Notes: generated from the letters alone by a model not told the origin. A stretch of 64,000 nucleotides of DNA from Candidatus Undinarchaeota archaeon (GCA_964636545.1 CAZWSR010000003.1:6947-70946), one strand, 5' to 3'. Positions 15,383 to 59,418 are shown, counted from the stretch's first letter. Program-made: numbers and translations.

Positions 15383-15821
15383 TTTTTCCTCTTTTTCCCT
15401 TTGATAAGGTTTTAGGTTTTTGGTTTTTGGTTTTTGGTTTGATTAGAAACGAATCAAAAATTGACTCAAATGATTTTGCTTTCGGTGCCCCGGCTCCACG
15501 GCGCCCCGGCTTTACTTTTTTCGGTTTTTTCTTACTCAGCTTAGCAACTCTGTCAAACATTTTGTCCTTGGAAATAACTAACTGTTTACCTTTTTTGGTG
15601 ATTTTGACAACGCCATACCATTTTAGAACTTGCGTTTCTGAAACAGCTGCGGCTGGAGAGATTTTGACTTTGTCAGGAAATTTGACACAATACTCGCGAA
15701 TGTCGTCATCATAAACAACTGTAAGGGACTTACGCTTTTTTGCTCGAAAAATAGCATCCAAGATAAGAACTGTATTTTTTCCCGGCTCTCCAATTACTTT
15801 TAGAATGTTATCAGGAAGCAT
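15141..15821 (-). CDS. Hypothetical basic protein; the C-terminal 80 codons overlap the HIT gene in another frame
   Basis: TTTAAA box and GAGGTG SD upstream of the ATG. The N-terminal ~100 aa look globular, followed by repeat-derived peptides and a K/R-rich tail. Confidence 0.6.
   Translation of the reverse strand: MLPDNILKVIGEPGKNTVLILDAIFRAKKRKSLTVVYDDDIREYCVKFPDKVKISPAAAVSETQVLKWYGVVKITKKGKQLVISKDKMFDRVAKLSKKKPKKVKPGRRGAGAPKAKSFESIFDSFLIKPKTKNQKPKTLSKGKRGKNDKRKLHLLQNSKKRNTKQKNSRGRKVSRVSGHKSNSKRPRTRNTKKPLRNISGNARKRSKRTVRPKPKARKKPKRKTKR
15408..15442. repeat. AT-rich heptamer array (GGTTTTW x5), coding in-frame for KPKTKNQKPKT
   Basis: ggtttta ggttttt ggttttt ggttttt ggtttga. Confidence 0.8.
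15483..15514. repeat. GC-rich octamer array (single arm), in-frame in the 226-aa ORF (KPGRRGAGAPK)
   Basis: cggtgccc cggctcca cggcgccc cggcttta. Confidence 0.85.
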
Positions 15822-15980
15822 TAGTGCTATTCCACCTCAGAATTGGGTAATAAGTACGTGTTTAAATAGTTTTTAGAGTCCGCCTTGCCGCGGACGATGG
15901 CATGAGGGCATCGCCTTCGGCGAAGCCCTGTCTTGAAATTGGTTCGATCTGCGATAGTTTTTTCTGAGAAACTAAAAAAG

Positions 15981-16054
15981 TGGACCCGTCGTGATTTGAA
16001 CACGAGGCCTCTACCATGCCAGGGTAGCGATCTACCGGACTGATCTACGGGCCC
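15981..16054 (-). tRNA. tRNA-Ala(GGC), no encoded CCA
   Basis: Cloverleaf with acceptor GGGCCCG/CGGGTCC including the G3:U70 alanine determinant, anticodon arm CTACC-CTGGCAT-GGTAG and TTCAAAT T-loop. Confidence 0.95.
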
Positions 16055-16097
16055 AACTGAATTTTCAATAACAACACCACTTTATAATCGTTTTGAC

Positions 16098-16131
16098 TCT
16101 ACCAACTACCTACCACCCACCACCTACTACC
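16098..16131. repeat. GGTAGTA-family heptamer arm; supplies the TAG stop of the EamA gene
   Basis: aactacc taccacc caccacc tactacc (minus strand ggtagta ggtggtg ggtggta ggtagtt). Confidence 0.8.
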
Positions 16132-17038
16132 TTTTCTTAAACAAATAATGAGTCCGCTTAGAACCAGCATAATAAATTATTTTTGATAAACGGCCACGGC
16201 CATATCCACGCATGTAATGTAAGAAAGTTCCGCCAATAAGCAGAACAATAGTTCCTGCAGCAAATCTTGCAGAAAGTGTTTCTCCGAATATGAAGATAGC
16301 ATAGATGAATGCAGATATTGTTGCGCCAAGAAGCAGAGTTATACTCATTGTTTCTGTTTTCAAGCGCATTATAGAATAATTAAAGCAAATATAACCAAAT
16401 CCAGTAGCTCCAACACCAAGAAGAGCTAACCAGTGCCAGACAGCAGCGACATTTCCGAATCCGTAAATCATTGGAAATGGTGCTAGGAATAATGAAGCAA
16501 ATAAGAATATCCAGAAAGTTCCTTTCAAAGTTTGAATCATACCCTCTCTGCGCATATACACAACCATTATTGAGTAAAGCACAACTTCAAGGAACATTAT
16601 TGTTACCCCAATTTGGGATTTGAAAGTGATTGGGTTTAGGACAAGAATTGCAACTGCACCGAAAATAAGTGCAATTAAATCAGATGCGCGGATTCCGTCC
16701 TTGAGAATATACCCACCAAAAACCAGTATGAAGAATGGGAAAAACGCATCCATTACATATGCTTGAGTGATTGTAAGATAGTGAAACGCTGTGTTGAATA
16801 AGGACATTGCAGCGCCGATTAAGAAACCTATTATGATGTAGTATCTGGCTTCACCCTTAGTGATTTTGAATAGATCTCGCCTAAAGAATAAGCCAATGAT
16901 TCCTAGAAAAACAGCTGCAATAAAAACACGTAAGAAATTAACAGTCATAAACGGCACAGCAGTTCCTATAAGGTTGATCCACAATCCTATGCTTCCAATG
17001 GCAAGTGCAGCTAAAACTGCAAATAGGTATTTTCCCAT
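16127..17038 (-). CDS. EamA/DMT family transporter
   Basis: 303 aa, about 10 TM helices in two repeated halves. Confidence 0.88.
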   Translation of the reverse strand: MGKYLFAVLAALAIGSIGLWINLIGTAVPFMTVNFLRVFIAAVFLGIIGLFFRRDLFKITKGEARYYIIIGFLIGAAMSLFNTAFHYLTITQAYVMDAFFPFFILVFGGYILKDGIRASDLIALIFGAVAILVLNPITFKSQIGVTIMFLEVVLYSIMVVYMRREGMIQTLKGTFWIFLFASLFLAPFPMIYGFGNVAAVWHWLALLGVGATGFGYICFNYSIMRLKTETMSITLLLGATISAFIYAIFIFGETLSARFAAGTIVLLIGGTFLHYMRGYGRGRLSKIIYYAGSKRTHYLFKKR

Positions 17039-17088
17039 TAAGAAGAGGATGATTTTGGGATTTAAATAATTTGTTGTAAGAGAAAAAG

Positions 17089-17166
17089 TGGTGCCCCGAC
17101 CGGGATTCGAACCCAGGTCCCAGCCTTGAGAAGGCTGAATGATTGACCGGACTACACCATCAGGGC
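17089..17166 (-). tRNA. tRNA-Glu(CTC), CCA encoded
   Basis: GCCCTGA acceptor, anticodon arm CAGCC-TTCTCAA-GGCTG, GTTCGAATC T-arm and 3' ACCA. Confidence 0.95.
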
Positions 17167-17225
17167 AACAGCTATCTAAAAATCTACTTCTGATTGTTTT
17201 TAAAGTTTGTTATAGGAATAAATAA

Positions 17226-19195: not shown

Positions 19196-19495
19196 AGTAT
19201 CATCTAAGTAATCCTTTTTTATAAAGGTTTGTAGCAACCAAATTTTAAGGAAAAGTATATAAACAATATTTTACTAACGTTAAATTAGAAACAACAGAAA
19301 AAGAGATCAAAGCCAGGAACAACCATGAGTTGCCGCTCATGATATTGGTTTTGATGGGTGGTCGATGTGAATTTTAGATAATACTATTTTAGTTACTATC
19401 ACAATTATAAAGAGATAGTAAAACTGAGTATATAAGCATTTCGGAAAAAGTTGGTTTTTCTATTTCTTAAAAAATTTGGAGGCAAAAAAACTAAA

Positions 19496-20599: not shown

Positions 20600-20933
20600 G
20601 AACCTTTCTTTGGTTCTACTCTAGGAAAGCCATTCAAGCAGGGTCCCACCCACTATTTTTTAAGGGGGCCCTGCTTCCCACCCCTGTCAATATTTGAATT
20701 GGTTAAATTGGTTAATTGGTTATTGGATGGAAGTGCAGGGGACACTTCGTACTGCATGAAGCCCACTTCAGTAGTTTAAATTTGCGAAGCTGAAGGGGCT
20801 TAAACAATTCTATAGAAATTGGTTCGGTCTGCTATTTTTTGTTAAAATAGTAGTAATTATTTGCCATATAGACATTAATTAGGCCAAAAAAATGCTCTGA
20901 GGGTTTTAAACCCCAGAGCTATATCATTAATGC

Positions 20934-24254: not shown

Positions 24255-24371
24255 TGGATTCCCCATTCTGAACGAAGCTAGTTACATAACCTTTATATAC
24301 CTTTCGCCGAGGTCAAAAAAATCTAAAACCGATAGCAAGCAAGGTAGAAATTCGTAAAAAGTGTGAAAAAA

Positions 24372-26102: not shown

Positions 26103-26175
26103 TTAAGGTAGTAGGCAGTTGGCACTAGGTAGTAGGTCTTACCCACTGCCCCCTGCCCACCACCCACAACCTTAA
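26103..26175. repeat. GGTAGTA-family heptamer hairpin, both arms, bounded by TTAAGGT...ACCTTAA
   Basis: ttaa ggtagta ggcagtt ggcacta ggtagta ggtcttacc cactgcc ccctgcc caccacc cacaacc ttaa. Confidence 0.85.
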
Positions 26176-29365: not shown

Positions 29366-29422
29366 GCTAAGTTTTGTAAAAATAATGATTTATAAGTTTA
29401 TCCAATGGGTTAAATTGGTTCG

Positions 29423-29457
29423 GGTAGTAGGCAGGGGGCAGGGGGTAGTAGGATTAG
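29423..29457. repeat. GGTAGTA-family heptamer arm
   Basis: ggtagta ggcaggg ggcaggg ggtagta ggattag. Confidence 0.8.
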
Positions 29458-29491
29458 GAAAAGGTTTATACTAAAAAAACAAACAGAGATT

Positions 29492-29842: not shown

Positions 29843-30502
29843 TTATTCTTCTTCAGGAAAATCTTCAAATTCTTCAACAGTGTATTTGAAAGCATCTGCT
29901 TTCTTGATTTTTCCCTGCTTCAACATAACTTCCCTTGCCAATAACCAGAAAATCATTGACAAAGATTTCTTTCCCTTGTTGTTGCATGGGATTATGAAAT
30001 CAATATTCTGAGTCATGTTATTTGAATCGCAAAGTGAAATAATTGGAATATTCATTTTCAAAGCTTCCATTAATGCCTGTCTGTCTGCTCCTGGATCAAT
30101 AATGAAAATTAATTCTGGCTCAGTGTATTTTACATAAGCAGGATTTGTCAAACTACCTGGCATGAATCTTGTAATAATTGGAGTTGCTCCAATCAAATCA
30201 CAGAATTTTTTAATAGCTGGCCTGCCAACATCACGAGCACAAACTACCATGATTTTTTCTGGCTTGTAATTAGCGAGCATATTTGAAGCTGTCTTAAGTC
30301 TGCGATCAATTTCAGAAACATCAAGAACTGACAAACCATCTGGCCTAACTTTGTAAATGAATTTTGCCATGTCATTTAGCTTTCGCTGTGTGCCAATATG
30401 AACTCCAGCAGACAAGTACTTGTCCAAAGGAACTAGAGTATCTTGTGCCGGTAGTGCGTCTTCTTTTGGCGCTTCTTCTTTGGTTTTTGGTTCTTCTGTC
30501 AT
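29843..30502 (-). CDS. rps2: 30S ribosomal protein S2 (uS2)
   Basis: YLSAGVHIGTQ, RFMPGSLTNP and IPCNNKGKKSL. Confidence 0.96.
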   Translation of the reverse strand: MTEEPKTKEEAPKEDALPAQDTLVPLDKYLSAGVHIGTQRKLNDMAKFIYKVRPDGLSVLDVSEIDRRLKTASNMLANYKPEKIMVVCARDVGRPAIKKFCDLIGATPIITRFMPGSLTNPAYVKYTEPELIFIIDPGADRQALMEALKMNIPIISLCDSNNMTQNIDFIIPCNNKGKKSLSMIFWLLAREVMLKQGKIKKADAFKYTVEEFEDFPEEE

Positions 30503-30581
30503 TTTGGTTTTTGGTTAAATGTATCGGGCATCTGGCTTCGGGTATCAGGCCTGATACCTGATGCCTGTTACCTGATCCCTA
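30503..30581 (-). repeat. CAGGTAT-family heptamer hairpin between eno and rps2
   Basis: Minus strand caggtaa caggcat caggtat cagg-cctgata cccgaag ccagatg cccgata catttaa ccaaaaa; perfect 18-bp palindrome ggtatcaggcctgatacc at 30541-30558. Confidence 0.88.
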
Positions 30582-31800: not shown

Positions 31801-31856
31801 GAAAAAGAGTAGGCTGTTCGTTATATAAATACGTTGAGTTCGTTGATATTTTTTCA

Positions 31857-31923
31857 GGGGCTCCGGGGCGCAGGGGCTCAGTAGATCCGTACGGCGCTCC
31901 GGCTCCACGGATTCACGGCTCCC
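31857..31923. repeat. GC-rich octamer hairpin between the divergent eno and psmB promoters
   Basis: ggggctcc ggggcgca ggggctca gtagatccgta cggcgctc cggctcca cggattca cggctccc. Confidence 0.88.
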
Positions 31924-32657: not shown

Positions 32658-32722
32658 ATCGTTTTTAGTCTTTCGTTATTCGTTTTTAGTAAACGAACAA
32701 CGAGAAACCAATAACGAATAAC
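32658..32722. repeat. AT-rich heptamer hairpin between psmB and fttA
   Basis: atcgttt ttagtct ttcgtta ttcgttt ttagta aacgaac aacgaga aaccaat aacgaat. Confidence 0.8.
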
Positions 32723-36844: not shown

Positions 36845-36930
36845 TTTTGTTTATCCTCTTGGTTAAGGTTTCAGCCCTCGGCCATCAGCCATCAGTTCCT
36901 GAGGGCTGACTGCTGACTGCTGATACCTGT
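36845..36930 (-). repeat. CAGGTAT/TCAGC-family heptamer hairpin between pcc1 and pfdB
   Basis: Minus strand acaggtatcagcagtcagcagtcagccctcaggaactgatggctgatggccgagggctgaaaccttaaccaagagga; near-identical to 51929-52013. Confidence 0.9.
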
Positions 36931-37576: not shown

Positions 37577-37666
37577 CTTTTGTTTTTCCTTTTGGTTAAG
37601 GTGTCAGCCCTCTGCCCTCTGCCTTCAGGTCCTGAAGGCTGAATGCTGACTGCTGATACCTGTTTA
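37577..37666 (-). repeat. CAGGTAT/TCAGC-family heptamer hairpin between rrp42 and rpl37ae
   Basis: Core gccttcagg-t-cctgaaggc at 37620-37638; ends ccttaaccaaagga...ATG. Confidence 0.9.
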
Positions 37667-39193: not shown

Positions 39194-40093
39194 TTAAAAC
39201 ACCTCCATGTCATCAACCTTTTTCTCTTCAGGTGCTTCAGATCCTTTTATTTTTGGAAGCTCAGCTTCTGCAAGTTTTTTAACTTGTGGAACTGGCTTTG
39301 GAGCTGGTGCTGCCTGAGCAACAGGTGCTGGTGCCGCTGCTGGTGTAGCTTGTGCTACAGGAGCAGGTGCGCCAGGAGTTGCTGGTGCTGCAAGTGCTAC
39401 TGGTTTTGGTGCAGATATTCCTGTTGATTTTGACAGAAATTTCTGAACTTCATCAGTCAAACCCTGTTTGTGTGCATTCTTTTCAATTAGACGAATTGCG
39501 TCAACAGCAAGTTGCATGTTAACACCGCTAATCCAGATGCGTCCGTTCTGACCAACTACAATTCTGCAGCCAGTTTTGTCCTTTATCATCTGAATCATTG
39601 TGCCTTTCTTTCCAATTATGCGTGGCACTTTTGTTGGGCAGATTTCTATCATTTGCCCACCATTCAGTTTGTACAAGCCGCGATCTTTCATTGTAAGACC
39701 TGCGACAAGAGATTCTGAAACATTATCCACTTTTGCTAGGATAACATCACCAATTGCGTATATGTCTGACAGCTTTTCGCTGTTCAGATCAACGTATCGC
39801 TCGCATCCGTTTGCTACTGAAAGCACTGCGGAATAATTAGAATTTATTTCCAAGTTCCACATTGAAAATGCAATATCGGTTATTACACCAATTACAAGAT
39901 CGCGTGGCTTTGGAAGATATTTTCCCTTAAGCGGTATCACTTTTAAGAAGGATTCTTTTGCATCCAAAAGTCCAAGAACTGAAGCATAGACTCCAGTCTC
40001 GTCTCGGAATGTTCCTTCACCGAGCAGATAGTCACCTTCTGCTATCTGATCACCAGGCAAAACCAATTGCCTGTTCTCTATTTTTAAAGTCAT
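39194..40093 (-). CDS. rrp4: Exosome RNA-binding subunit Rrp4 with a long Ala/Pro-rich C-terminal tail
   Basis: VLPGD, S1 domain and KH motif [10 protein letters not shown]...GQNGRIW. Confidence 0.93.
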
Positions 40094-43177: not shown

Positions 43178-43246
43178 CTCGTTTTTAGTTTTTGGTTCTT
43201 CGTTTTTCGTTACCAATAACTAATTACTAATAACGAAAGACGAATT
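43178..43246. repeat. AT-rich heptamer hairpin in the rpl15e leader
   Basis: ctcgttt ttagttt ttggttc ttcgttt ttcgtta ccaat aactaat tactaat aacgaaa gacgaat; same family as 32658-32722. Confidence 0.8.
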
Positions 43247-43780: not shown

Positions 43781-43812
43781 GACCTACTACCTCCTACCTA
43801 CTACCCACTACC
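43781..43812. repeat. GGTAGTA-family heptamer arm immediately downstream of the rhomboid gene
   Basis: tactacc tcctacc tactacc cactacc. Confidence 0.8.
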
Positions 43813-43838
43813 TTATTAAAAAACTCCGCCTAATAACT

Positions 43839-44465
43839 TTACATCCACTTCTTTTCCCATTGGTCAAATGACTCTCCGCTAATTTCAATATCGTTTTTTC
43901 TATTGTGTTTTACTTCCTTGAATTTCTTATAGAAATAAATTCCAAAACCAATTCCAATAAACAATCCAGCAAGATGAGCGGCATTCGCTGTCCCACTTGG
44001 CACAAACAATCCTATAAAATCACCGAAAGCCCAGAATGCTGCAGCAACTGCCATTGGCATTGGAAAACCAGTAACCCATACGGTCATTTTTGGCCTGAGA
44101 ATTGCAAGTGCACCTAGGATTCCGAAAATTGCCCCAGAAGCTCCGAGAACTGCGCCGTAAAAAGGAATGGAAATAAATGCAGATGCTAGCCCTGCAGCAG
44201 CGTATAGTATAAGAAAATTTTTACTGCCTATAACTTTTTCTAGTATGGGACCGAAGATTAGAAGCGCGAACATATTATAAAGTAAATGTGAAAAACCGCC
44301 ATGCATGAACGCATGTGTCACAATTGTCCAAGGCCGGAAGACTGCATAATCAGAGACCAGTACAAAATAATTTTGGAGATCTCCAATAATAAATTGTATT
44401 ACAAAAACTCCCATACAGATTAGAGCAATGCGTATTGACCACCAAGAGGATTTTTTTTTAATCAT
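43839..44465 (-). CDS. Rhomboid intramembrane serine protease
   Basis: RPWTIVTHAFMHGGFSHLLYNM, GASG and AHLAG; ATGA overlap with the upstream gene. Confidence 0.93.
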   Translation of the reverse strand: MIKKKSSWWSIRIALICMGVFVIQFIIGDLQNYFVLVSDYAVFRPWTIVTHAFMHGGFSHLLYNMFALLIFGPILEKVIGSKNFLILYAAAGLASAFISIPFYGAVLGASGAIFGILGALAILRPKMTVWVTGFPMPMAVAAAFWAFGDFIGLFVPSGTANAAHLAGLFIGIGFGIYFYKKFKEVKHNRKNDIEISGESFDQWEKKWM

Positions 44466-45109
44466 ATTATGAACCACATAACAATTGAAACTGCAAGAGG
44501 AATTGTGAAATTATCATCAAGTCGGATTGGGAGAGACTCAACAATCATTCCGACAACCGCGGCAATGATTGCTAATGGAAGTGAAGTAATAATTAAACAA
44601 GCAATAAACGATGTCAAGAGACCAGCTATAGAACCTTCCCATGTTTTTTGTCGATTAAAGGAAATTTTGTGTTTTCCAAAATGTACTCCGATTAATGTAG
44701 AAAAAGAATCACCAACAGCTAACACAAGCATTGCTATTCTGAAAACAGCAGGTCCGAAAACAAGCAGGGAAATAAAACCACTGAAAAAAATAGTTGTGAT
44801 CCCAATATAAATTCCAAGTCGGCGCTCTTCAGCTCTGGCAAAACTATGGCAATAATCAAGAACTCTTTTGAGAAAACCTAATCTGTGTGAAAGTGGACGG
44901 AAAAAGCACAATGTAGAGCCAACAACAAATCCTAGAATTAAAAATAATAAAAGAAATACTTTTGGAATAAAATAGCTTGCAATCACCATTATCATTCCAA
45001 ATAAGTGAAAGAGCTGTCGTTTAAATTCCAAAGTCATGGCCAGAAATTGAATCAGTGAGTTTAAATAAATTATTATTGCAAAAATAGCGATAACTATAAA
45101 AGCCACCAA
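44462..45109 (-). CDS. Dolichol/phytol kinase-like CTP-dependent lipid kinase (SEC59/DGK1 family)
   Basis: RQLFH, GDSFSTLIG...KTWEGS and DDNFTIP. Confidence 0.85.
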   Translation of the reverse strand: MVAFIVIAIFAIIIYLNSLIQFLAMTLEFKRQLFHLFGMIMVIASYFIPKVFLLLFLILGFVVGSTLCFFRPLSHRLGFLKRVLDYCHSFARAEERRLGIYIGITTIFFSGFISLLVFGPAVFRIAMLVLAVGDSFSTLIGVHFGKHKISFNRQKTWEGSIAGLLTSFIACLIITSLPLAIIAAVVGMIVESLPIRLDDNFTIPLAVSIVMWFII

Positions 45110-46876: not shown

Positions 46877-46919
46877 AGTTAGAATAAGGATATTGCACTA
46901 TTTAAGTGTTTTTTTTAGG

Positions 46920-46980
46920 AATTTAGATTTTAGAATTTGGAATTTAGAATCAATTCTAAACCCCAAAATCAAAACTCCAA
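46920..46980. repeat. AT-rich heptamer hairpin downstream of the DUF2085 gene
   Basis: aatttag attttag aatttgg aatttag aatcaatt ctaaacc ccaaaat caaaact. Confidence 0.7.
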
Positions 46981-49806: not shown

Positions 49807-50576
49807 TTACAGTTGTCTTAATTGAACCACATTATTCTGGGAATATTGGCTCAGTTTGCAGAGCTATGAAGAATTTTGGATTTAGTAAATTGGAATTTGT
49901 TAATCCAAAAAAGATTACAGCTGAAGCTGGGATGATGGCTGTTCATGCAAAAGATGTTCTGGAAAAAGCAAAAACAGTAACTAAGTTTGATTTTAAGAAA
50001 TATGATTATGTAATTGGAACAAGTTGCAAAGCAACAGAAAAGGATGATTATTTTTTGAGAATGACAACGCCACTGAAAGAGTTGAAAAAGAAATTTGGGG
50101 CACCGGGGCGCGGGGGCGCCGCTGGACAGAAACGGCGCTCCGGATCCACGGCGCTCCGGCCAACTGGAAAGATAGCAATTGTGTTTGGTCCAGAACCTTC
50201 TGGCTTGTCAAATGAATTTCTTGAGAAATGTGATATCATCACAACAATCCCAACTTCTCCAAAATACAGAAGCATGAATTTGTCACACGCTGTTGCAGTA
50301 GTGCTGTACGAACTTGCAGGTAGTGGGCAGGGGGCAGTGAGCAGTGGGGCAACAGTGCGATTAGCAAATTCAAAGGAGAAATCACTAATCAATACCAATA
50401 TGAAAAGTATTGTTAAGAAAAGTGGTTATCCTGCTGAAAAACACAAAGTATTTAACAGCATGTTCCAGAAGCTCCTAGGGAGAGCAGTAGTAACTGGGAG
50501 AGAAGCAAACACATTAATAGGCGTTCTCAAACGTATAAAGAAGGCAACAGGCGTCAGGGATCAGGCATCAGGATAA
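49803..50576 (+). CDS. trmJ: TrmJ/TrmH-family SPOUT tRNA methyltransferase carrying repeat-derived in-frame insertions
   Basis: VLIEPHYSGNIGSVCRAMKNFG, VFGPEPSGLSNE and SMNLSHAV; ATGA overlap with suhB. Confidence 0.92.
   Translation: MITVVLIEPHYSGNIGSVCRAMKNFGFSKLEFVNPKKITAEAGMMAVHAKDVLEKAKTVTKFDFKKYDYVIGTSCKATEKDDYFLRMTTPLKELKKKFGAPGRGGAAGQKRRSGSTALRPTGKIAIVFGPEPSGLSNEFLEKCDIITTIPTSPKYRSMNLSHAVAVVLYELAGSGQGAVSSGATVRLANSKEKSLINTNMKSIVKKSGYPAEKHKVFNSMFQKLLGRAVVTGREANTLIGVLKRIKKATGVRDQASG
50097..50164. repeat. GC-rich octamer hairpin, in-frame inside trmJ (GAPGRGGAAGQKRRSGSTALRPT)
   Basis: ggggcacc ggggcgcg ggggcgcc gctggacagaaa cggcgctc cggatcca cggcgctc cggccaac. Confidence 0.9.
50319..50346. 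repeat. GGTAGTA-family heptamer arm, in-frame in the trmJ linker (GSGQGAVSS)
   Basis: ggtagtg ggcaggg ggcagtg agcagtg. Confidence 0.8.
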
Positions 50577-50616
50577 CAAAACCTGATACCAGAAACCCGA
50601 TACCTGATACCTGTAA
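50548..50616 (+). repeat. CAGGTAT-family heptamer hairpin encoding the trmJ C-terminus and stop
   Basis: caggcgt cagggat caggcat caggata acaaaa cctgata ccagaaa cccgata cctgata cctgtaa. Confidence 0.88.
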
Positions 50617-50635
50617 AAAAGAGGTAAATAAAAAA

Positions 50636-51928: not shown

Positions 51929-52013
51929 GAGGCATCAGGTGTCAGCAGTCAGCCATCAGGACCTGATGGCTGAAGGCCGAGGGCTGAAACCTTAACCAAG
52001 AGGACAAATAAAA
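51929..52013 (+). repeat. CAGGTAT/TCAGC-family heptamer hairpin upstream of uL16
   Basis: Perfect 12-bp arms tcagccatcagg-a-cctgatggctga at 51949-51973; ends ccttaaccaagagga...ATG. Confidence 0.9.
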
Positions 52014-52544: not shown

Positions 52545-52590
52545 AGCAGATTTCTAAAAGAATTTATACTAAAAAGTTAAAGGAATAGCC

Positions 52591-53451
52591 ATGACACCAT
52601 CCTGGAGAAGAAAATTTGAGGAATTTAATAACGAGAAGGTAGTTGATACGATTCTTGAAAAACTTGAGACTAACATAAGAGACAAGGACGAAAAAAAGAG
52701 GGAAGTTGAAATAGACTGGGATCATGACGGAGATACAGATGCATGGGAAAGAAATGAACGGACCATTGCAGAATTTGTTAACAAAGAAAAATTTATTTCA
52801 AAACTTGTGAAAGGAGTAAAACCAATAAGAGTGGATGGAAATGAAAGATTTTATGGATTATTTGCACAAGAAATAGATGGCTGGAAAGTTCTACTAGAAC
52901 CATGGACACAAGTGGACAAAGGAAAGGTAATTAGTGCAGAGTATGAGAGTGTTACGATAATTATAGCAAAGATAGACAACAAAAGAAATTTGGAATACAA
53001 GGCTGATCGAATCTATGGAGAACATTTAGCAGTACAACATGAAGATTGCTCATCTTTTTTAGGTGCAAAATTTGACTTGAAATTCAAAACATCAAAGAAT
53101 CCAAAGGGCCTGATTCTTGGAGAAGATTTGTATGATTTCGCAGGAGAACTTATTGAATTATCAAAAAGTATGGATTGTGGAATAGGAGTAAAAAACATTA
53201 AGCAGAAAAAGAACGGAGAGTTGAAATTCCATGGAGGAATACATATCTACCCTCGTTTTCAAAGCTCATTTAAGAACAATAAAATGAAGATACAAATGGG
53301 TTATGCTTTATTTTATAGAGAAGGATATGAGTTATGGGGCAACAGAATAGGATTGAACAAAACAGATGATAAGGCAAATGGAGTTGAACTAAAGATCCCA
53401 TATACAACAGGAGATCTTGATGATCTTGGATTTACAGACGGAGAGTCGTGA
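52591..53451 (+). CDS. Hypothetical protein
   Basis: 286 aa ORF with a TTTATA box upstream; no recognised motif. Confidence 0.65.
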   Translation: MTPSWRRKFEEFNNEKVVDTILEKLETNIRDKDEKKREVEIDWDHDGDTDAWERNERTIAEFVNKEKFISKLVKGVKPIRVDGNERFYGLFAQEIDGWKVLLEPWTQVDKGKVISAEYESVTIIIAKIDNKRNLEYKADRIYGEHLAVQHEDCSSFLGAKFDLKFKTSKNPKGLILGEDLYDFAGELIELSKSMDCGIGVKNIKQKKNGELKFHGGIHIYPRFQSSFKNNKMKIQMGYALFYREGYELWGNRIGLNKTDDKANGVELKIPYTTGDLDDLGFTDGES

Positions 53452-53518
53452 ATAACTGAAACTCACATTACCCACTATTTATTTAAACCCGCGATTACTA
53501 CTGCGATTAAGATAAAAC

Positions 53519-56266
53519 ATGGATTATATTGTATGGTTCAAAGATTTGAATAAAAAAAGCATCAGCGTAGCTGGAGGTAAAGGAGCAAACCTTGGTGAGC
53601 TGACTGCTGCTGGAATGCCAGTGCCTGAAGGTTTTATTTTAACTGCACAAACCTACAAGAAATTTATTGACGAGGCAGATCTGAATGAAGACATAAACGA
53701 AATTCTAAAGGACTTGGATGTTGAGGATAATGACAAACTGCAGAAGGCATCAAAAGATATTGGAAGTATGATAACTGGTTCTCCAATGCCAGATGAAGTG
53801 CAGGAAGCAATCAAAACCGAGTATGAAAAAATTGAATCAACTGATAATATTATAATTGCAGGAACAGGGCAAGAACCAGGAGAATTTGTTGCAGTGCGCT
53901 CTTCAGCAACTGCAGAGGACCTGCCAGGCGCAAGTTTCGCAGGCCAACAAGCAACTTTCTTGAATGTGAAAGGTGGAACCAACCTAATCCACGCAGTAAA
54001 AGAGTGCTGGGCTTCATTGTTTACAGCAAGAGCAATTTATTATCGTGTGAAAAAAGGTTTTGAGCATGAGAAAGTTCTGATTTCAGTTATTGTTCAGAAA
54101 ATGATTGACTCAGACAAGTCAGGAGTTATGTTTACTGTAAATCCAGTTGATAATGACCGCTCAAAAATTTCAATTGACTCTGCTTGGGGACTTGGAGAAG
54201 CAATTGTTGGCGGACAAGTTACTCCAGATCACTTCCTTGTTGATAAAGAAACACAAGAAATTACAGAAAGTAAAGTTTCTAAAAAGGACTTCATGTACAC
54301 CCGAGATATTGCAGAAGGAAACACAACAAAAGTGACTTTGACTGACGAAACCGCGAATAAGAGCTCAGTTACTGATGAGGAAGTTAAAACTCTTGCTGAG
54401 TTTGGGAAGAAGATTGAGGCGCATTATGATTATCCACAAGATATTGAATGGGCAATTGATAGTGGTGAATTTTTCATTTTGCAATCAAGGCCAGTTACGA
54501 CTTTAGGGGATGAAGATGGAAAGGCAGTAGGTAGTGGGCAGAAGGCAGTAGCTGAAAAACCTCAAACCACTGCACCAACAGGCGATGTTTTAGTAAAAGG
54601 TTTTGGCGCAAGCCCAGGAATTGGCGGCGGAAAAGTGAAGATTGTTCACGATGCTAGTGAATTAACAAAAGTTGAAAAAGGAAATGTGCTTGTTGCTAAA
54701 ATGACTAGCCCAGATATGGTTCCAGCAATGGAAAGAGCAAGTGCAATTGTCACAAATGAAGGTGGAGTAACTTGTCATGCTGCAATTGTTTCACGAGAAC
54801 TTGGAATACCATGTATTGTTGGAAGTGAAAATGCAACTGAAGTTTTGAAAGATGATCAAGAAGTCACAGTTGATGCAAAAGCAGGAGTTGTTTACCCTGG
54901 AATAAAAGCAAATGCAAGCACAGAACCAATAAAACTTGAAACAGCTGACAAAATCCCAACAAAAACAAAGATTTATGTTAATTTAGGAATTCCAAGCAAG
55001 GCAAAAGAGGTTGCTGCACTGCCAGTTGACGGTGTTGGTTTGATGCGAGAAGAATTTTTAATTGCTTCGCAGATTGGTGAGCACCCACTTGCAATGATTG
55101 AACGTGGAGCATCGCAGGAGTTTATTGACAAATTAGCTGACGGAATTCAGCAAGTTGCTGAAGCATTTAATCCACGACCAGTTGTTCTGCGACTAAGTGA
55201 TTTGAAAACAAATGAGTACCATGACTTGAAAGGTGGAGATAAATTTGAAGATCCTGAAGATAATCCAATGATTGGATGGCGCGGATGCTCAAGATACACT
55301 TCTGACAAATACAAAGAGGCATTCAAGCTTGAATTGAAAGCTGTGAAGAAGGTGCGTGATGCTGGTTTCAAGAATATTGTAATAATGTTACCGTTTGTTA
55401 GAAAACTTGATGATGTTACACGAGTTACAGAACTGATGAAAGAAGAAGGACTTGAGCGCGGCGAGGACTTGAAATTATGGATAATGGCAGAAGTTCCTTC
55501 AGTTGTTATTCTTGCTGACGAATTTGCAAAACTTGTTGATGGATTTTCAATTGGCAGTAATGATTTAACTCAATTGACAATGGGAGCAGACCGCGATTCT
55601 GAATTGCTTGAGAAACTTGGTTATTTTGATGAGCGAGATGAAGCAGTTATGCGATCAATTGCACGTTTGATAAAATTAGGAAATAATGCAGGAATTACTG
55701 TTTCAATTTGCGGACAAGCACCTAGCACAAAGCCAGAGATTATCAAAGTTTTAGTTGAGAAAGGAATTACTTCAATAAGTGCAAATCCAGATGTTGCTGT
55801 GCAGACAATGAAAATGGTTGCTCAGGAAGAGAGTAAGATTACTTTAGCTAAGGATGAAATTGAATCAGGGGCTCCGGGGCGCAGTGAAACCGGGGCGACG
55901 GAGCGGAGTATAGACGTAGAGACGAAAACAGAACCTCAAACTCCAAACCCACAACCCCAAACCACTGAACCAATTGAAATACAAACTCCAAGCCATGTAG
56001 AACCGAAACCACCTAGCGCACCAGCCCCTATGCCACCTAAAGAAGAATCAGAGAAAAAGCAAGAGAACCTACCCCATTTTTCACCTCCAGCACAACTTCC
56101 AAAAAAAGATGATGACGAAGACGACGAGGATGACGATGATAATGGATTTATTGAGAAAGTAGAAGATGTTGTTGAAGATATTGGAGATAAAGTTGAAGAA
56201 ATTGGAGAAAAAGTAACTGGATTTTTCAGGCATGATAAGGACGAGGAAGGGAAGGAAGAAGAATAG
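53519..56266 (+). CDS. ppsA: Phosphoenolpyruvate synthase with a long low-complexity C-terminal extension
   Basis: GGKGANLGEL, AVRSSATAEDLPGASFAGQQ, GGVTCHAAIVSRELG, NPMIGWRG and SIGSNDLTQ. Confidence 0.96.
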   Translation: MDYIVWFKDLNKKSISVAGGKGANLGELTAAGMPVPEGFILTAQTYKKFIDEADLNEDINEILKDLDVEDNDKLQKASKDIGSMITGSPMPDEVQEAIKTEYEKIESTDNIIIAGTGQEPGEFVAVRSSATAEDLPGASFAGQQATFLNVKGGTNLIHAVKECWASLFTARAIYYRVKKGFEHEKVLISVIVQKMIDSDKSGVMFTVNPVDNDRSKISIDSAWGLGEAIVGGQVTPDHFLVDKETQEITESKVSKKDFMYTRDIAEGNTTKVTLTDETANKSSVTDEEVKTLAEFGKKIEAHYDYPQDIEWAIDSGEFFILQSRPVTTLGDEDGKAVGSGQKAVAEKPQTTAPTGDVLVKGFGASPGIGGGKVKIVHDASELTKVEKGNVLVAKMTSPDMVPAMERASAIVTNEGGVTCHAAIVSRELGIPCIVGSENATEVLKDDQEVTVDAKAGVVYPGIKANASTEPIKLETADKIPTKTKIYVNLGIPSKAKEVAALPVDGVGLMREEFLIASQIGEHPLAMIERGASQEFIDKLADGIQQVAEAFNPRPVVLRLSDLKTNEYHDLKGGDKFEDPEDNPMIGWRGCSRYTSDKYKEAFKLELKAVKKVRDAGFKNIVIMLPFVRKLDDVTRVTELMKEEGLERGEDLKLWIMAEVPSVVILADEFAKLVDGFSIGSNDLTQLTMGADRDSELLEKLGYFDERDEAVMRSIARLIKLGNNAGITVSICGQAPSTKPEIIKVLVEKGITSISANPDVAVQTMKMVAQEESKITLAKDEIESGAPGRSETGATERSIDVETKTEPQTPNPQPQTTEPIEIQTPSHVEPKPPSAPAPMPPKEESEKKQENLPHFSPPAQLPKKDDDEDDEDDDDNGFIEKVEDVVEDIGDKVEEIGEKVTGFFRHDKDEEGKEEE
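54523..54550. repeat. GGTAGTA-family heptamer arm, in-frame in the ppsA inter-domain linker (KAVGSGQKAV)
   Basis: ggcagta ggtagtg ggcagaa ggcagta. Confidence 0.8.
55868..55907. repeat. GC-rich octamer arm, in-frame in the ppsA tail (GAPGRSETGATER)
   Basis: ggggctcc ggggcgca gtgaaacc ggggcgac ggagcgga. Confidence 0.8.
55934..55968. repeat. Heptamer arm, in-frame in the ppsA tail (PQTPNPQPQT)
   Basis: cctcaaa ctccaaa cccacaa ccccaaa ccactga. Confidence 0.65.
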
Positions 56267-56302
56267 CTAACATTTTTATACCATAACTTGAAGGAATTTA
56301 TT

Positions 56303-57286
56303 ATGCAAGACAAGATTTTACAAGCAGTTCAGGAAAAAGGAGCAAAGAAGATAGGACTGCAGGTTCCAGAAGGCCTGAAGAACAAGGCAGTTGAGTGGGC
56401 ACAAGAAATTGAGAAAACTGGAGCAAAAGTTTATATTTTCGCTGATCCATGCTATGGAGCTTGTGATTTATGGGATTTTGAAGCAGACCGACTTGGTTGC
56501 GATTTGCTAATTCATGTTGGGCATTCTACAATTGGAATTGAAGAAAAAATTCCAACAGTTTACATTGAATATGAATCTGACTTGGATATTTCAAAAATTG
56601 TTGAGAAAGCTGGACAGGAAATTGAAGAAAAAAAGATTGTATTAACCACTACACTGCAACACATCAAACAACTTGATAAAATTAAAGAAATTCTGGAAAA
56701 ATCTGGAAAAGAAGTTGTTATTGGAAAAGCAGGAACTCGTTCAAAATATGATGGACAGATTCTTGGATGCGACCCAGGAGTTATTGCTGATGCAGATGCA
56801 TATCTTTACATTGGTACTGGAAACTTCCACGCAATTGAAATTGCACTTGCAACAGGCAAAAAAGTTTACATTGCTGATCCTGAGCTTGACCAAATTAGGA
56901 TTTTAGATGATGAAAAAGAGGAATTCTTAAGAAAACGATTTGCAAAAATTGAGAATGTGAAGGGGGCGCCGGGGCGCCGGGGCGCCGGGGCTCAGAAGTT
57001 CGGTATTCTGGTCAGCATAAAACCAGGTCAGAACCGAATGGACTTGGCTGAAAAACTGAAAAAGATGTGTGAAGAGAAAGGAAAGCAAGCAGAAATTCTT
57101 GTGATGGACTACATTAGCCCAGAAAAACTACTTGGATTTGGATTTGATGCATATGTAAACACAGCTTGTCCGCGAATTGCTATTGATGATTCTGGAAATT
57201 ATGACAAGCCGCTACTAACTCCGCAGGAATTAGAGATTGTTCTGGGAATTAGAGAATGGGAAAAATATAAATTAGATAGATTCTAA
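56303..57286 (+). CDS. dph2: Diphthamide biosynthesis radical-SAM enzyme Dph2
   Basis: Three Fe-S cysteines in DPCYGACD, ILGCD and TACPR; LQVPEGLK. Confidence 0.94.
   Translation: MQDKILQAVQEKGAKKIGLQVPEGLKNKAVEWAQEIEKTGAKVYIFADPCYGACDLWDFEADRLGCDLLIHVGHSTIGIEEKIPTVYIEYESDLDISKIVEKAGQEIEEKKIVLTTTLQHIKQLDKIKEILEKSGKEVVIGKAGTRSKYDGQILGCDPGVIADADAYLYIGTGNFHAIEIALATGKKVYIADPELDQIRILDDEKEEFLRKRFAKIENVKGAPGRRGAGAQKFGILVSIKPGQNRMDLAEKLKKMCEEKGKQAEILVMDYISPEKLLGFGFDAYVNTACPRIAIDDSGNYDKPLLTPQELEIVLGIREWEKYKLDRF
56963..56994. repeat. GC-rich octamer array, in-frame in dph2 (GAPGRRGAGAQ)
   Basis: ggggcgcc x3 perfect, followed by ggggctca. Confidence 0.9.
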
Positions 57287-57295
57287 TAATAAGAT

Positions 57296-58000
57296 ATGAG
57301 TTTTGAAACTGAAAACGAAAAACTAAAACAGAATGAAGTTATTACATATGAAAGTAAGGTGAATATAAAGAATATTAAAGATGACTACGAGAAACTGATA
57401 ATCGATATTGGCGCAATTGGAGATATTGAAAAAGAAATCGGGTTTGGAAAAATACTTCTACCATGTGTTGAGCTGTCAAAGAACAAGAAATGGTTTGTAA
57501 CAGCTATTGATCTACCATTTATAACTGTAGAAGATATGATTACAGTTGAGGAATTCTGCGAAAATGATCTCCAAAAACTGAAGAGGAAGAATTTAGGTAT
57601 GAGAATTCTGGAAACAAATTACAAGACACTTCCGTTTGACACTTCAATTTTTGACAGGGTTGAGATGCATTATGTTCTTACAATTTGCGACAAAAACGCA
57701 AAGAATATTCTAAGTGAAGCTGACAGAGTCCTGAAACCAGGTGGAGTCATGATGATAAGTGGCGAGTATGGTTCACTAGTGAACTTGGATAGAAAGCAGA
57801 AAAAACTTCTACATAAGTTCATACAAAAGAAAAAATATACAAAAATAAAACCTGTGACAAAACAAGTGATGGTTAGTAACTTTGGTGAGGAGTTTGGAGA
57901 TGAGAAAGAACATCGTTTATACATGCTAAGAAAACCAGTTGAAAAAGATAAGAGAGGAATACTCAATAGTTTGAAAAAGTGGATAACTAATTGGATGTGA
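57296..58000 (+). CDS. Class I SAM-methyltransferase-like protein (divergent)
   Basis: LIIDIG and LPFDTSIFDRV...EADRVLKPGG. Confidence 0.65.
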   Translation: MSFETENEKLKQNEVITYESKVNIKNIKDDYEKLIIDIGAIGDIEKEIGFGKILLPCVELSKNKKWFVTAIDLPFITVEDMITVEEFCENDLQKLKRKNLGMRILETNYKTLPFDTSIFDRVEMHYVLTICDKNAKNILSEADRVLKPGGVMMISGEYGSLVNLDRKQKKLLHKFIQKKKYTKIKPVTKQVMVSNFGEEFGDEKEHRLYMLRKPVEKDKRGILNSLKKWITNWM

Positions 58001-58030
58001 AAATTATAAATTGGACCGATTTTAAGCCAA

Positions 58031-58062
58031 TTACCTACCACCCACTACCCACTACCTGAACC
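58031..58062. repeat. GGTAGTA-family heptamer arm upstream of the rpoL promoter
   Basis: ttacc taccacc cactacc cactacc. Confidence 0.78.
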
Positions 58063-58111
58063 AATTGGATAAACTTATAAACACCCAAAAACTCAGAATA
58101 GAGGTAATAAA

Positions 58112-58384
58112 ATGGAACTAAAAATTTTAAAAGATGAAAAAGACCTTCTTGAGGTTGAACTTGTTGGAGAAACACACACTCTAACAAATGTACTGAAAGA
58201 TATTTGTAATGAAGATAAGAGTATTGACAGTGCATCATACAGAGTGGATCACCCAATGACATCCAACCCAATTCTAGTTATTAGAACAAAAACAGGTTCA
58301 CCAAAAACTGCAGTGAAGAAAGCAGCAGCAGCACTAGAAAAAATCGCAGCTGACTTTGGAAGCAAGTTCAAAAAATCTATATAA
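58112..58384 (+). CDS. rpoL: RNA polymerase subunit L (Rpo11)
   Basis: GETHTLTNVL and SYRVDHP. Confidence 0.94.
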   Translation: MELKILKDEKDLLEVELVGETHTLTNVLKDICNEDKSIDSASYRVDHPMTSNPILVIRTKTGSPKTAVKKAAAALEKIAADFGSKFKKSI

Positions 58385-58424
58385 ACTGTAATAACTAATT
58401 CTTACAAAGCTGGGGAAGATTATT

Positions 58425-58952
58425 TTGAAAATAAAACTTAGCAAAAAGACAAAGAGCTTTTTAGAAACGCTTGCATATATTTTCATAGGTTACCTAATCG
58501 CTGTTGGAGCAAACAAAGGAATGTCAATGGCAATGCACACAGACTACCCAGTTGTTGCTGTTGTTTCAAGTAGTATGGAACATGACGATCCCATTAGTTA
58601 TGAAACATGGTTTATTGATAGAAAATATGATGAGGCAGATAGAGAAGAATGGGATTTTGGAAGAGGAATCAACAAAGGAGATATAGTTTTTGTTAATGGG
58701 GTTCCATTAGAAGAGATTGGTAGCGGAGATGTAATAGTTTACAAATCAGGCAATATGGAGCCGATAATCCATAGAGTTATTGAAGTCACAGATGATGGAT
58801 TAAGAACAAAAGGTGACAATAACATGGATGTTGATCAGGATGATAGTATTCCAATTGTAACACAAGGGGCTTTGCAAGGAAGAGCAGTTTTCCGAGTTCC
58901 AATGTTAGGTTATGTTAAAATCGCGTTTATGAAAATTACAGGGAGGAGCTAG
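58425..58952 (+). CDS. sec11: Signal peptidase I (Sec11 type)
   Basis: TM helix, VVSSSME (Ser), IIHRV (His), TKGDNN and PMLGYVK; TTG start. Confidence 0.9.
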   Translation: MKIKLSKKTKSFLETLAYIFIGYLIAVGANKGMSMAMHTDYPVVAVVSSSMEHDDPISYETWFIDRKYDEADREEWDFGRGINKGDIVFVNGVPLEEIGSGDVIVYKSGNMEPIIHRVIEVTDDGLRTKGDNNMDVDQDDSIPIVTQGALQGRAVFRVPMLGYVKIAFMKITGRS

Positions 58953-58954
58953 AA

Positions 58955-59035
58955 CAGGTGTCAGGTAACAGGGATCAGGGTTCAGGATAACAGTTCCTGA
59001 TACCCGATGCCCGAACCCCGATACCTTTAACCAAA
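58955..59035 (+). repeat. CAGGTAT-family heptamer hairpin between sec11 and tfs
   Basis: caggtgt caggtaa cagggat cagggtt caggata acagtt cctgata cccgatg cccgaac cccgata cctttaa ccaaa-ATG. Confidence 0.9.
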
Positions 59036-59362
59036 ATGCAATTCTGTCCAAAATGTGGTGCAATGATGCAACCGCGTGAAAAAAAAGGAACTGATGACAT
59101 GGAGCTTGTCTGCCCAAAGTGCAAATATGTTGAAGGCGCTGATGAAGATGCTCACACAAGCACAGAAGTTCAGGAGAAAGTTGAAGAAGTTGCAGTTATT
59201 GATGAAAACTCAGTTGCACTGCCAAAAACCGATAATGAGTGCCAGAAATGCCACAATAAGAAAGCGTACTGGTGGCTTGAGCAAACAAGATCTGCTGACG
59301 AAGCACCTACTAGATTTTACAGATGCACAAAGTGCGGAAATACTTGGCGGGAATATAGTTAG
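59036..59362 (+). CDS. tfs: Transcription factor S (TFS/RpoM)
   Basis: FCPKCG...CPKC, CQKC...QTRSADE...CTKCG. Confidence 0.95.
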   Translation: MQFCPKCGAMMQPREKKGTDDMELVCPKCKYVEGADEDAHTSTEVQEKVEEVAVIDENSVALPKTDNECQKCHNKKAYWWLEQTRSADEAPTRFYRCTKCGNTWREYS

Positions 59363-59366
59363 TTCC

Positions 59367-59418
59367 GTGAATCCGGGGCTCCGCAGGGCCGTACGGCGCT
59401 CCGGCTCCACGAATTCAC
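59367..59418. repeat. GC-rich octamer hairpin directly after the tfs stop
   Basis: 59389-59418 matches 31887-31916 at 29 of 30 nt (ccgtacggcgctccggctccacgRattcac). Confidence 0.88.

Follow-up and report, generated by a model that had tools for sequence, protein, structure and literature searches.

What are the arrays of 7- and 8-nt units that recur in a 64,000-nt stretch of a Candidatus Undinarchaeota archaeon (GCA_964636545.1, CAZWSR010000003.1:6947-70946; the window from here on), and how did they come to lie in gene junctions and protein-coding frames alike? The elements consist either of two arrays of the same family in inverted orientation (doublets) or of a single array (singlets). As reported below, they are absent from the same sites of a sister genome, their copies at different loci resemble each other in the order of their unit variants, and their units have changed jointly between species. 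The set is best filed as a real, lineage-specific archaeal variant of the heptamer-array class, that is, of inverted long simple sequence repeats (LSSRs). It combines a population behavior similar to that of the inverted doublets of repetitive extragenic palindromes (REPINs) with a tolerance inside proteins similar to that of the Rickettsia palindromic elements (RPEs). The elements are most likely neutral or selfish hairpin DNA.

Arrays of 7- and 8-nt units and their empty sites

The window was scanned with Tandem Repeats Finder (TRF; score >=30), and 30 dinucleotide-preserving shuffles were used as controls. Period 7 is represented by 25 rows and period 8 by 12, compared with shuffle means of 1.8 (maximum 4) and 1.9 (maximum 5), respectively. 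The array density is far above that of shuffled sequence, and tandem head-to-tail units in the 5-11-nt range of the LSSRs thus occur beyond what composition gives. Rows of period 9 are also more numerous than in shuffles (14 vs. 2.3), which is ordinary coding periodicity. After merging of rows and reading of the arrays with their flanks, about 25 elements were recognized at 15408-59420 (table 1), in a census covering the window and the contigs of the same species. Their number, their four family groups and the presence of both complete and half copies agree with a preliminary description of this DNA.

In detail, the TCAGG/TCAGC heptamer family has six members, all of them complete hairpins. 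The GGTAGT/GGCAGN heptamers make up seven elements with a single complete one. AT-rich heptamers (GGTTTTT, TCGTTTT, and TTTAGAA) are found in five elements, three of which are complete, and GC-rich octamers (GGGGCGCC / CGGNGCTC) in six, again with three complete. An Ala/Pro-coding hairpin within Rrp4 (E13) is one extra possible member; it was not flagged by TRF and folds with -51 kcal/mol over a 106-nt stretch. Complete elements, with a left arm, a short spacer, and a complementary right arm, number 13 (10 heptamer and 3 octamer inverted pairs). The elements are 25-75 nt long, and each arm is composed of four to five heptamers or three to four octamers, the units being degenerate. By an approximate gene map, they occupy 2.9% of the stretch between 15 and 60 kb and account for ~22% of the non-coding sequence there.

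The archaeal origin that had been supposed for this DNA is confirmed. The gene content is archaeal (Rrp4, Rrp41, Rrp42, proteasome subunits, RNase P proteins, PCNA, TFS, FttA, Dph2, and ABCE1), and the nearest relatives of the DUF1512 protein are in metagenome-assembled genomes (MAGs) of Undinarchaeota, a DPANN lineage. The GTDB representatives do not include the genome of the window itself. The L10e gene of the window was found on eight further contigs of the same species from independent assemblies (four Joint Genome Institute [JGI] metagenomes, two NCBI assemblies, and two Logan runs). These contigs are 99.87-100% identical to the window over up to 17.3 kb, with zero gaps; single-nucleotide polymorphisms (SNPs) are few, and inside the elements there are neither SNPs nor indels. 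The agreement of eight independent assemblies rules out an assembly artefact, and the absence of indels and SNPs rules out hypermutable contingency loci at this time scale. Within the species the elements are stable, and the population is fixed for them. Unit-number variation by slippage among close strains, which is a mark of LSSRs, was not seen among the eight assemblies; only E23 looks recently expanded.

Three relatives are informative about filled and empty sites. By protein identity they rank as UBA543 (locus L015; 78-90%), then L005 (L005/L006; 76-82%), and then the sister genome GCA_964567575.1 (L001-L004/L007; 75-82%), while other Undinarchaeales have 45-65% identity to the window where matched. 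Per 10 kb, the window has a density of 5.8 period-7/8 arrays, compared with 7.0 for L015, 8.9 for L005, and 1.4 for L001/L007. The remaining ~75 DPANN loci have, almost without exception, densities of 0-3, and the high outlier L043 (6.4) is AT-rich low complexity. These densities confine the system to the subclade of the window, UBA543, and L005. The elements entered or grew in this subclade of the Undinarchaeota after the split from the element-free sister.

The comparison of orthologous loci in the sister MAGs revealed empty sites in L001 both at gene junctions and in protein loops. For instance, SpoU and DUF1512 overlap in L001 and are separated by 7 nt in L005 and by 60 nt in the window, where E19 is located. 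Similarly, the gap between DUF1512 and L10e is 5 nt in L001, 3 nt in L005, and 85 nt in the window (E20), and the genes of the signal peptidase and TFS abut in L001 and are 83 nt apart in the window (E25). The spacer after TFS, which has E26 in the window, is ~20 nt in L001. Finally, the RpoL promoter directly follows the Dph2 stop codon in L001, and in the window E24 lies just upstream of this promoter. Together with the in-frame insertions described next, the empty orthologous sites show that the elements were gained and are not a conserved part of the genome.

The elements had been described from both junctions and coding frames, and this holds; inside genes, such as those of SpoU, Dph2, and the PEP synthase, they are always stop-free and in frame. 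E17 adds 19 residues to SpoU (PGRGGAAGQKRRSGSTALRP); it is missing in L001, and L005 has the right arm only. E18 adds five residues to the same protein and is missing in L001, L005, and L015. In Dph2, the three perfect octamers of E23 code for eight extra residues, which are missing in L001, L002, and L015. In the PEP synthase, E21 is orthologous to a complete hairpin of UBA543 and missing in L001 and L005, and E22 is common to the window and L005 and missing in L001 and L015. Since orthologues without these segments exist, the segments are not ordinary conserved parts of the proteins. It is shown that the sites are only those where a compact genome tolerates extra DNA, namely gene junctions and the linkers and loops of proteins.

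Relations among copies and the origin of the elements

The six TCAG-family hairpins align without gaps in their arms, with 5+5 units and shared ends AGG(T)...ACCTTAACCAA; at 7-nt steps, TCAG is invariant in the 5′ arm, and the 3′ arm has C-N-GA. The three TCAGC hairpins (E11, E12, and E20) have the same order of unit variants (GCAG / GCAG / GCCN / GGA), and E11 is 88.7% identical to E20 over 97 nt, the two lying 15 kb apart on opposite strands. E19 and E25 (TCAGG) have the loop GATAACA in common, and E9 and E26, separated by 27 kb, hardly differ in their right arms. A common order of unit variants and common loops across loci are the product of dispersed copying, or of conversion between loci, and not of independent slippage. 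At different loci of this genome, the elements are copies of one another.

A purely local origin was weighed against these data. Each element would then arise independently when a seed at its own site, for instance the AGG of a ribosome-binding site, underwent slippage and was mirrored by fold-back, with no copying between loci. Several first units are indeed in register with their native flanks, that is, with AGAGG of the ribosome-binding site before E20, with ACAGGGA before E25, and with CTAG of the Dph2 stop in UBA543, and many unit families contain the AGG/AGGT core of ribosome-binding sites. The perfect array of E23, (GGGGCGCC) x3.6, points to a probable recent slippage in place, and a polymerase footprint has been proposed as the reason for 7-nt slippage (Mrazek 2007, cited after PMC4679880). 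Nevertheless, distant copies share not only the order of unit variants but also unit number, loops, and termini, the E9/E26 resemblance extends over 27 kb, and a nested insert is common to two elements of UBA543 (below), so that an exclusively local origin is quite unlikely.

Between genomes, the picture is one of concerted change or replacement, the elements at orthologous intergenic sites being different in all units of the two arms. The window and UBA543 both have a filled site at five junctions, where their unit sequences differ. At the SpoU to DUF1512 and the DUF1512 to L10e junctions, the left ends and the flanks are homologous between the two genomes. Where the window has TCAGG/TCAGC in every unit, UBA543 has TTAGG, and each unit of the opposite arm is changed in a complementary way; an odd nested insert is common to both UBA543 elements. 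Before the RpoL promoter there is a 7-nt array in the window (E24), an 8-nt array in UBA543, and none in L001. After TFS, the window (E26) and UBA543 hold different octamer hairpins, and between the peptidase and TFS, UBA543 has a different GC-rich insert without units. Intergenic copies are thus closer to other copies of the same genome than to their positional counterparts in the other genome, which indicates concerted evolution or repeated replacement.

Starting from the observed gain relative to the sister, the in-frame insertions, the paralogy and concerted change of the copies, and their stability, we infer a sequence of steps to which we assign about an even chance: the elements would be lineage-specific dispersed repeats, made as slippage arrays, mirrored, and then copied or homogenized as neutral-to-selfish hairpin DNA. 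Replication slippage would make and turn over the unit arrays, as proposed for bacterial heptamer repeats. Intrastrand template switching (fold-back synthesis) would mirror an array into a hairpin. Hairpin-based copying or homogenization between loci may depend on an enzyme acting in trans, by a logic similar to that of REPINs and their transposases (RAYTs), or on short-tract gene conversion. Only copies landing in junctions or protein linkers would be retained by the compact genome.

Several observations weigh against this explanation. Searches of the window and of ~50 kb of related loci turned up no mobilizing enzyme, and the filled/empty comparisons gave no constant target-site duplication: AAGAGG flanks E20 on both sides, and the other sites are without a repeat. 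The five junctions filled with differing families are more readily accounted for by inheritance and homogenization than by independent transposition, except if only very few sites are permissive. In addition, E17 and its counterpart in UBA543 have an identity of 95% in their arms and of 0.89 at third positions, compared with 82% and 0.64 in the rest of SpoU; this hints at a constraint on the nucleotide sequence, unlike purely neutral DNA. Lastly, the uniform orientation of all six TCAG-family hairpins with respect to the downstream gene could mean a function.

As regards the agent, the absence of a transposase noted in the preliminary description was borne out by Pfam/NCBIfam searches of the window ORFs (open reading frames), which revealed no transposase, reverse transcriptase, or primase-like gene. 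No RAYT gene (Y1 HUH transposase) is present in the 64-kb window or in the ~50 kb of related loci, and the precomputed Pfam annotation of these loci contains no such enzyme and no Cas domain, with one LAGLIDADG-like ORF in L015 only. The arrays are not CRISPRs (short palindromic repeats that are clustered and regularly interspaced), as was also stated at first: the units are contiguous and degenerate with no spacers, and no cas domain is present in ~40 ORFs put through Pfam. As candidates for a constant target-site duplication, TAA, TTAA, and AAGAGG were rejected, being inconsistent among sites. MITEs (miniature transposable elements with inverted repeats) were rejected too, given the lack of a constant duplication and of any insertion sequence found. 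Viral contigs gave 7 matches only to the hairpin core pattern described below, so there is no sign of a viral vector.

Two proteins of the window, of 286 and 499 aa, were tried as mobilizing enzymes and rejected, as comparisons with protein families and solved structures gave no match for either and the repeats are not tracked by the gene of the one or the other. The 286-aa protein (52591-53451) is located at the L10e to PEP synthase junction, a hotspot of gene insertion: L001 and L005 have no gene there, and UBA543 (L015 9466-10551) has an unrelated LAGLIDADG-like ORF of 361 aa, to which the 286-aa protein is not homologous. The gene of the 499-aa protein is preceded at ~61100-61700 (L207 15945-16440) by a DUF7557 / ParE-like toxin-antitoxin pair.

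Table 1. Unit-array elements of the window. Strand is a point where none is assigned; z is the folding score relative to shuffles.
Element	Position	Strand	Copy and units	Location	Remarks
E1	15408..15440	.	half copy, (GGTTTTW) x4.7	gap between HIT gene start and small protein gene, or tail of ORF 15141..15821 (ORF read-through)	TRF period 7, 96% matches; sequence
E2	15483..15510	.	half copy, octamer CGGNGCCC x3.5	ORF tail	codes 'PGRRGAGAP'
E3	16099..16132	-	half copy, AGGTAGT-like x4.9	overlaps EamA stop codon; upstream of tRNA-Ala	
E5	26103..26175	.	complete, GGTAGT/GGCAGT family (TTAAGGTAGT...ACCTTAA)	flanked by two divergent TATA-like boxes	z -3.25; as RNA on - strand -43.5 kcal/mol
E6	29422..29458	+	half copy, GGGTAGT AGGCAGG GGGCAGG GGGTAGT AGG	divergent junction	
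E7	30479..30516	-	(AACCAAA) units	both sides of S2 start codon (5′ leader and first codons)	
E8	30521..30580	-	complete, TCAGG family	enolase to S2 junction; enolase stop codon overlapped	z -4.0
E9	31854..31923	.	complete, GC octamer	divergent enolase/proteasome-beta junction	z -0.66, not beyond composition
E10	32659..32722	+	complete, AT-rich (TCGTTTT / AACGAAN)	proteasome-beta to FttA junction	z -4.5
E11	36866..36928	-	complete, TCAGC family	immediately 5′ of prefoldin-beta ribosome-binding site and start	z -5.4
E12	37599..37661	-	complete, TCAGC family	Rrp42 to L37ae junction	z -7.5
E13	39327..39378	-	possible member	in frame, Ala/Pro-rich C-terminal part of Rrp4	helices ~7 nt apart
E14	43179..43245	-	complete, AT-rich	upstream of L15e	z -2.2
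E15	43782..43813	-	half copy, (AGGTAGT) x4.6	downstream of rhomboid gene stop	
E16	46914..46975	-	complete, AT-rich (TTTAGAA / TTCTAAA)	gap between DUF2085 gene stop and small ORF	z -2.8
E17	50097..50161	+	complete, GC octamer	in frame in SpoU methylase	
E18	50322..50351	+	half copy, GGCAGNG x4	in frame in SpoU	
E19	50542..50613	+	complete, TCAGG family	SpoU 3′ end and junction to DUF1512	z -5.95
E20	51929..51993	+	complete, TCAGC family	DUF1512 to L10e junction	z -4.7
E21	54522..54576	+	GGCAGTA-family	in frame, PEP synthase inter-domain linker	
E22	55865..55908	+	GC octamer ('GAPGRSETGATERS')	in frame near PEP synthase C-terminus	
E23	56963..56991	+	perfect (GGGGCGCC) x3.6	in frame in Dph2	
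E24	58032..58056	.	half copy, (TACCCAC) x3.6	just 5′ of RpoL promoter	
E25	58953..59026	+	complete, TCAGG family	signal peptidase to TFS junction	z -2.9
E26	59365..59420	.	complete, GC octamer	gap between TFS stop and next promoter	z -1.9

At the left end of the element-bearing stretch, the small-protein ORF 15141-15821 (-) runs through E2 and E1 (...KPGRRGAGAPKAKS...KPKTKNQKPKT...) and then overlaps the HIT gene by 240 nt in a different frame; the arrival of E2/E1 may have removed the stop that it originally had. Next to Dph2, a non-coding remnant of ~30 nt (57990-58027) repeats the 3′ end of this gene (...AAATTATAAATTGGACCGATTTTAA; compare 57250-57289). The remnant is placed just after a methyltransferase gene (57296..58000) that is missing at this place in L001 and L015, and it is closer to the Dph2 end of L001 than to that of the window itself. 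This suggests an insertion of the methyltransferase gene into the Dph2 end, which was thereby duplicated. At ~44000-45000, the cumulative GC skew turns from falling to rising where the gene orientation switches from the - to the + strand, which may be a coding-strand bias or a replication landmark.

Folding and possible roles of the hairpins

Folded as single-stranded DNA, the heptamer hairpins have z values from -2.2 to -7.5, and in 7 of the 10 no shuffle folds equally well. The GC octamer hairpins, with z from -0.7 to -1.9, are not above their own composition. The usual fold is an imperfect hairpin or cruciform, a ladder of 5-bp helices, one per unit, with 2x2 mismatches between them. Pairing is restricted to the conserved 5-base core of the unit, the two free positions being mostly mismatched; hence, the potential to form hairpins perhaps results in part from a single motif being present as two convergent arrays. 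Aligned with each other, the TCAG-family hairpins have three pairs in which C-G and G-C alternate from one subfamily to the other, with the C<->G flips compensated across the arms. Such flips keep the pairing, yet they also follow simply from both arms being of one subfamily.

The frequent G:T(U) wobble pairs had been taken as a sign of selection on an RNA hairpin, and this found no support. Of the complete hairpins, 11 are situated inside a gene or separate two genes of the same strand. In seven of these, the better fold is that of the antisense strand and in four that of the sense strand, with no consistent preference for + or - that could be tied to the direction of replication. The G:U asymmetry looks like transition drift in one arm. 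A polarity rule of the G/T-rich arm coming first was also rejected, since it holds on either strand of any such hairpin and is broken by the TCAGC subfamily.

A role as functional cis-acting RNA hairpins was considered on other grounds as well. Intercistronic or 5′-leader stem-loops of this kind would stabilize or separate tightly packed transcripts, or tune the translation of the downstream gene. All six TCAG-family hairpins lie between same-strand genes in their one orientation, and they end 4-25 nt before the starts of S2, prefoldin-beta, L37ae, DUF1512, L10e, and TFS. This position makes an effect on mRNA stability or translation possible. Three of them are followed by an unpaired GAGG, and AAGG is found before L37ae. 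The maintenance of pairing by the C<->G flips and the conservation of the E17 arms above the surrounding gene point in the same direction, and a parallel exists in the Beggiatoaceae, where CTGA-containing TAACTGA arrays are positioned just 5′ of start codons (PMC4679880). On the contrary, the sense strand is the better folder in the minority of cases given above, E5 may not be transcribed given its position between divergent TATA-like boxes, and half copies and copies in coding regions have no leader or intercistronic role. The sister L001 copes at the same junctions with 0-20 nt, the hairpins have no U-tract and so are not archaeal terminators, and the unit sequences are replaced wholesale between close genomes. 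An RNA role of the elements is thus regarded as unlikely.

The same 5-base core brings in a different possibility, namely arrays of binding sites for a sequence-specific protein of double-stranded DNA, or G-quadruplex (G4) arrays, with the hairpin as a by-product. Only this core is conserved and paired in each 7-nt unit, and the other two positions vary freely. The preferred arm size of four to five units, with a mode of four in unrelated contigs (among the matches listed), corresponds to what has been reported for GGGAATC arrays, namely a preference for four units and the formation of G4 (PMC4692102), and several G-rich arms have four G-runs (e.g., the - strand of E5, and E23). However, at least five unrelated unit families are present in one genome, including AT-rich ones incapable of G4, the families differ among close relatives, and no candidate binding protein was found. 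We consider this possibility very unlikely, and hairpin DNA of a neutral or selfish kind is preferred over it.

Intrinsic terminators were rejected on the lack of T-runs after the hairpins, and a known RNA family was rejected too, as the only Rfam matches of the window at gathering score are two tRNAs. A three-frame stop cassette was also thought of, in which a period of 7 or 8 would place TGA, TAG, or TAA in each frame; most frames of random 70-nt stretches with 38% GC contain stops anyway. Other hairpins were noted in the window. A GC-rich one, GAGGGCATCGCCTTCGGCGAAGCCCTG, adjoins tRNA-Ala (15880-15975) and has no Rfam match at gathering score. It is found slightly changed and in other contexts in L001 (5625-5745), within a 440-nt structured intergenic region, and in L015 (15690-15735), and it may be part of an unannotated small RNA. 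At 20640-20680, a strong plain hairpin without units, AAGCAGGGTCCCACCC...GGGGGCCCTGCTT, follows an FtsZ-like gene between convergent genes, with a second hairpin just before it.

Related systems and wider occurrence

Palindromic DNA that survives in compact genomes is known from other systems. RPEs and the coding palindromes of Methanocaldococcus jannaschii are selfish-looking, stop-free, in-frame insertions in permissive regions, and the GC clusters of yeast mitochondrial DNA are GC-rich palindromes scattered through an AT-rich compact genome. The elements of the window resemble the former in their in-frame survival, with SpoU, Dph2, and the PEP synthase having stop-free insertions that orthologues lack, and, in their GC-rich members, the latter, being GC-rich palindromes within a compact AT-rich genome. 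The likeness to the Rickettsia coding palindromes is functional only, with no sequence relation. Moreover, RPEs (also mentioned in PMC10969869) are longer (100-150 bp), the others have no 7/8-nt periodicity, and a fixed family consensus stands against the interchangeable units found here.

As for tandem arrays, heptanucleotides are the most abundant among the longer simple repeats in most prokaryotic genomes surveyed (Mrazek 2007, cited after PMC4679880). Xanthomonas genomes contain 70-75 convergent pairs of GGGAATC arrays each, four being the favored number of units (Rehm et al. 2015, PMC4692102); these arrays are mostly between aligned ORFs, transcribed, and stable in their loci (PMC4692102). 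The heptamer pairs of the window are of the same type, that is, close convergent arrays of one family capable of forming a stem-loop. They share with them the degenerate tandem 7-nt units, the mostly intergenic position near gene ends, the size of about four units, the frequency of convergent pairs, and the stability of the loci. They differ in belonging to a very small and compact archaeal genome with several co-existing families, octamers and AT-rich heptamers included, none of which dominates. Unlike those of Xanthomonas, the copies of the window are also dispersed paralogues with a common unit order, several of them in frame in conserved proteins.

The short tandemly repeated repetitive (STRR) sequences of cyanobacteria and the TAACTGA repeats of Beggiatoaceae, cyanobacteria, and Bacteroidetes are heptamer arrays as well, with several families in cyanobacteria (PMC4679880). 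TAACTGA repeats have forward CTGA-type units just before start codons, those of ribosomal-protein operons included, similarly to the window, and their stop codons in three frames exclude forward copies from coding regions (PMC4679880). They are nearly all direct arrays (1 indirect among 170 sets in BOGUAY) of one exact unit that crosses phyla (PMC4679880). In the window, by contrast, inverted pairs make up half of the elements, and not even sister genomes have the same units.

REPINs are inverted-repeat doublets, accompanied by singlets and mobilized by RAYTs (PMC3116915, PMC3337134). The window likewise has a within-genome population of doublet hairpins and singlets, and the likeness extends to the long imperfect hairpin, the immobile look of the singlets, the extragenic position, the genome-specific sequence populations, and the long persistence in a lineage (PMC3116915, PMC3337134). 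On the other hand, the units of repetitive extragenic palindromes are single short palindromes and not arrays of 7-nt units, REPINs are not in frame inside genes, and they are tied to a RAYT gene, which was not seen in the loci analyzed here. To our knowledge, the published REPIN/RAYT cases are all bacterial.

The system had been presented as new, and this claim goes too far: the heptamer excess and the inverted pairs of Xanthomonas are published, and the architecture itself is widespread. No paper on such elements in Undinarchaeota or other DPANN archaea was found in the literature. The core pattern TCAGNNNTCAGNNNTCAGG-N(1-12)-CCTGANNNCNGA, which has three matches in the window and none in 100 shuffles, was scanned over JGI metagenome contigs and occurs in at least 120 of them. 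The GC content of these contigs is 36-71%, and they show hardly any similarity to proteins of the window. Among the matches listed, nearly all contigs have further in-register units past the pattern, the arm length has its mode at four units and rarely exceeds seven, and the arms differ by no more than one unit in 62%.

This distribution brings up the possibility that 7-nt hairpins of four to five units are a cross-domain class made or moved by a dedicated activity, either a hairpin-specific HUH-type enzyme or a unit-adding polymerase/primase. We give it only a slim chance; if it were true, the Undinarchaeota would be the cleanest handle on that activity.

Some of the metagenome contigs are worth mentioning separately. 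Ten low-GC contigs (L093, L096, L099, L106, L131, L149, L152, L168, L178, and L196) share a larger conserved element, with a TCAGGTN/CCTGAAA heptamer hairpin as its core, the loop AATCGCCAGA, and the fixed flanks TTGAGCGAAAACCTCGCCATCGGGTCTCG... and ...AAACCAAAAAGTCTTGGAAAGCTATTAAC. It has a MITE-like look and no Rfam family match, and two copies lie on separate contigs of one sample. The contig L087 (Ga0163179_10008697, 6.6 kb, 61% GC) has 97 TRF rows of period 7/8, being far denser than the window, and large parts of it are TCAGGGG/CCCTGA heptamer arrays. In L124 (Ga0187827_10083448, 36% GC), which has two tRNA genes, a hairpin at 1237-1360 is close to the TCAGC family of the window and ends in ...CTGACACCCTAACCAATTTCAAAAAAGATG; this contig is possibly from a further relative with the same family.

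The heptamer excess and the inverted pairs of about four units have been on record since 2007-2015 without a mechanism. The set described here adds a DPANN example under strong streamlining, in which about one-fifth of the non-coding DNA of the stretch consists of elements. It also adds clean filled and empty sites, in-frame insertions in the widely conserved archaeal proteins SpoU methylase, Dph2, and PEP synthase, and evidence for dispersed paralogues and for the joint change of all units between species. Since an element-rich clade (the window species, UBA543, and L005, with genomes of ~1 Mb) stands beside the element-free sister GCA_964567575.1, a comparison of gene presence and absence could help to name the gene or process responsible.

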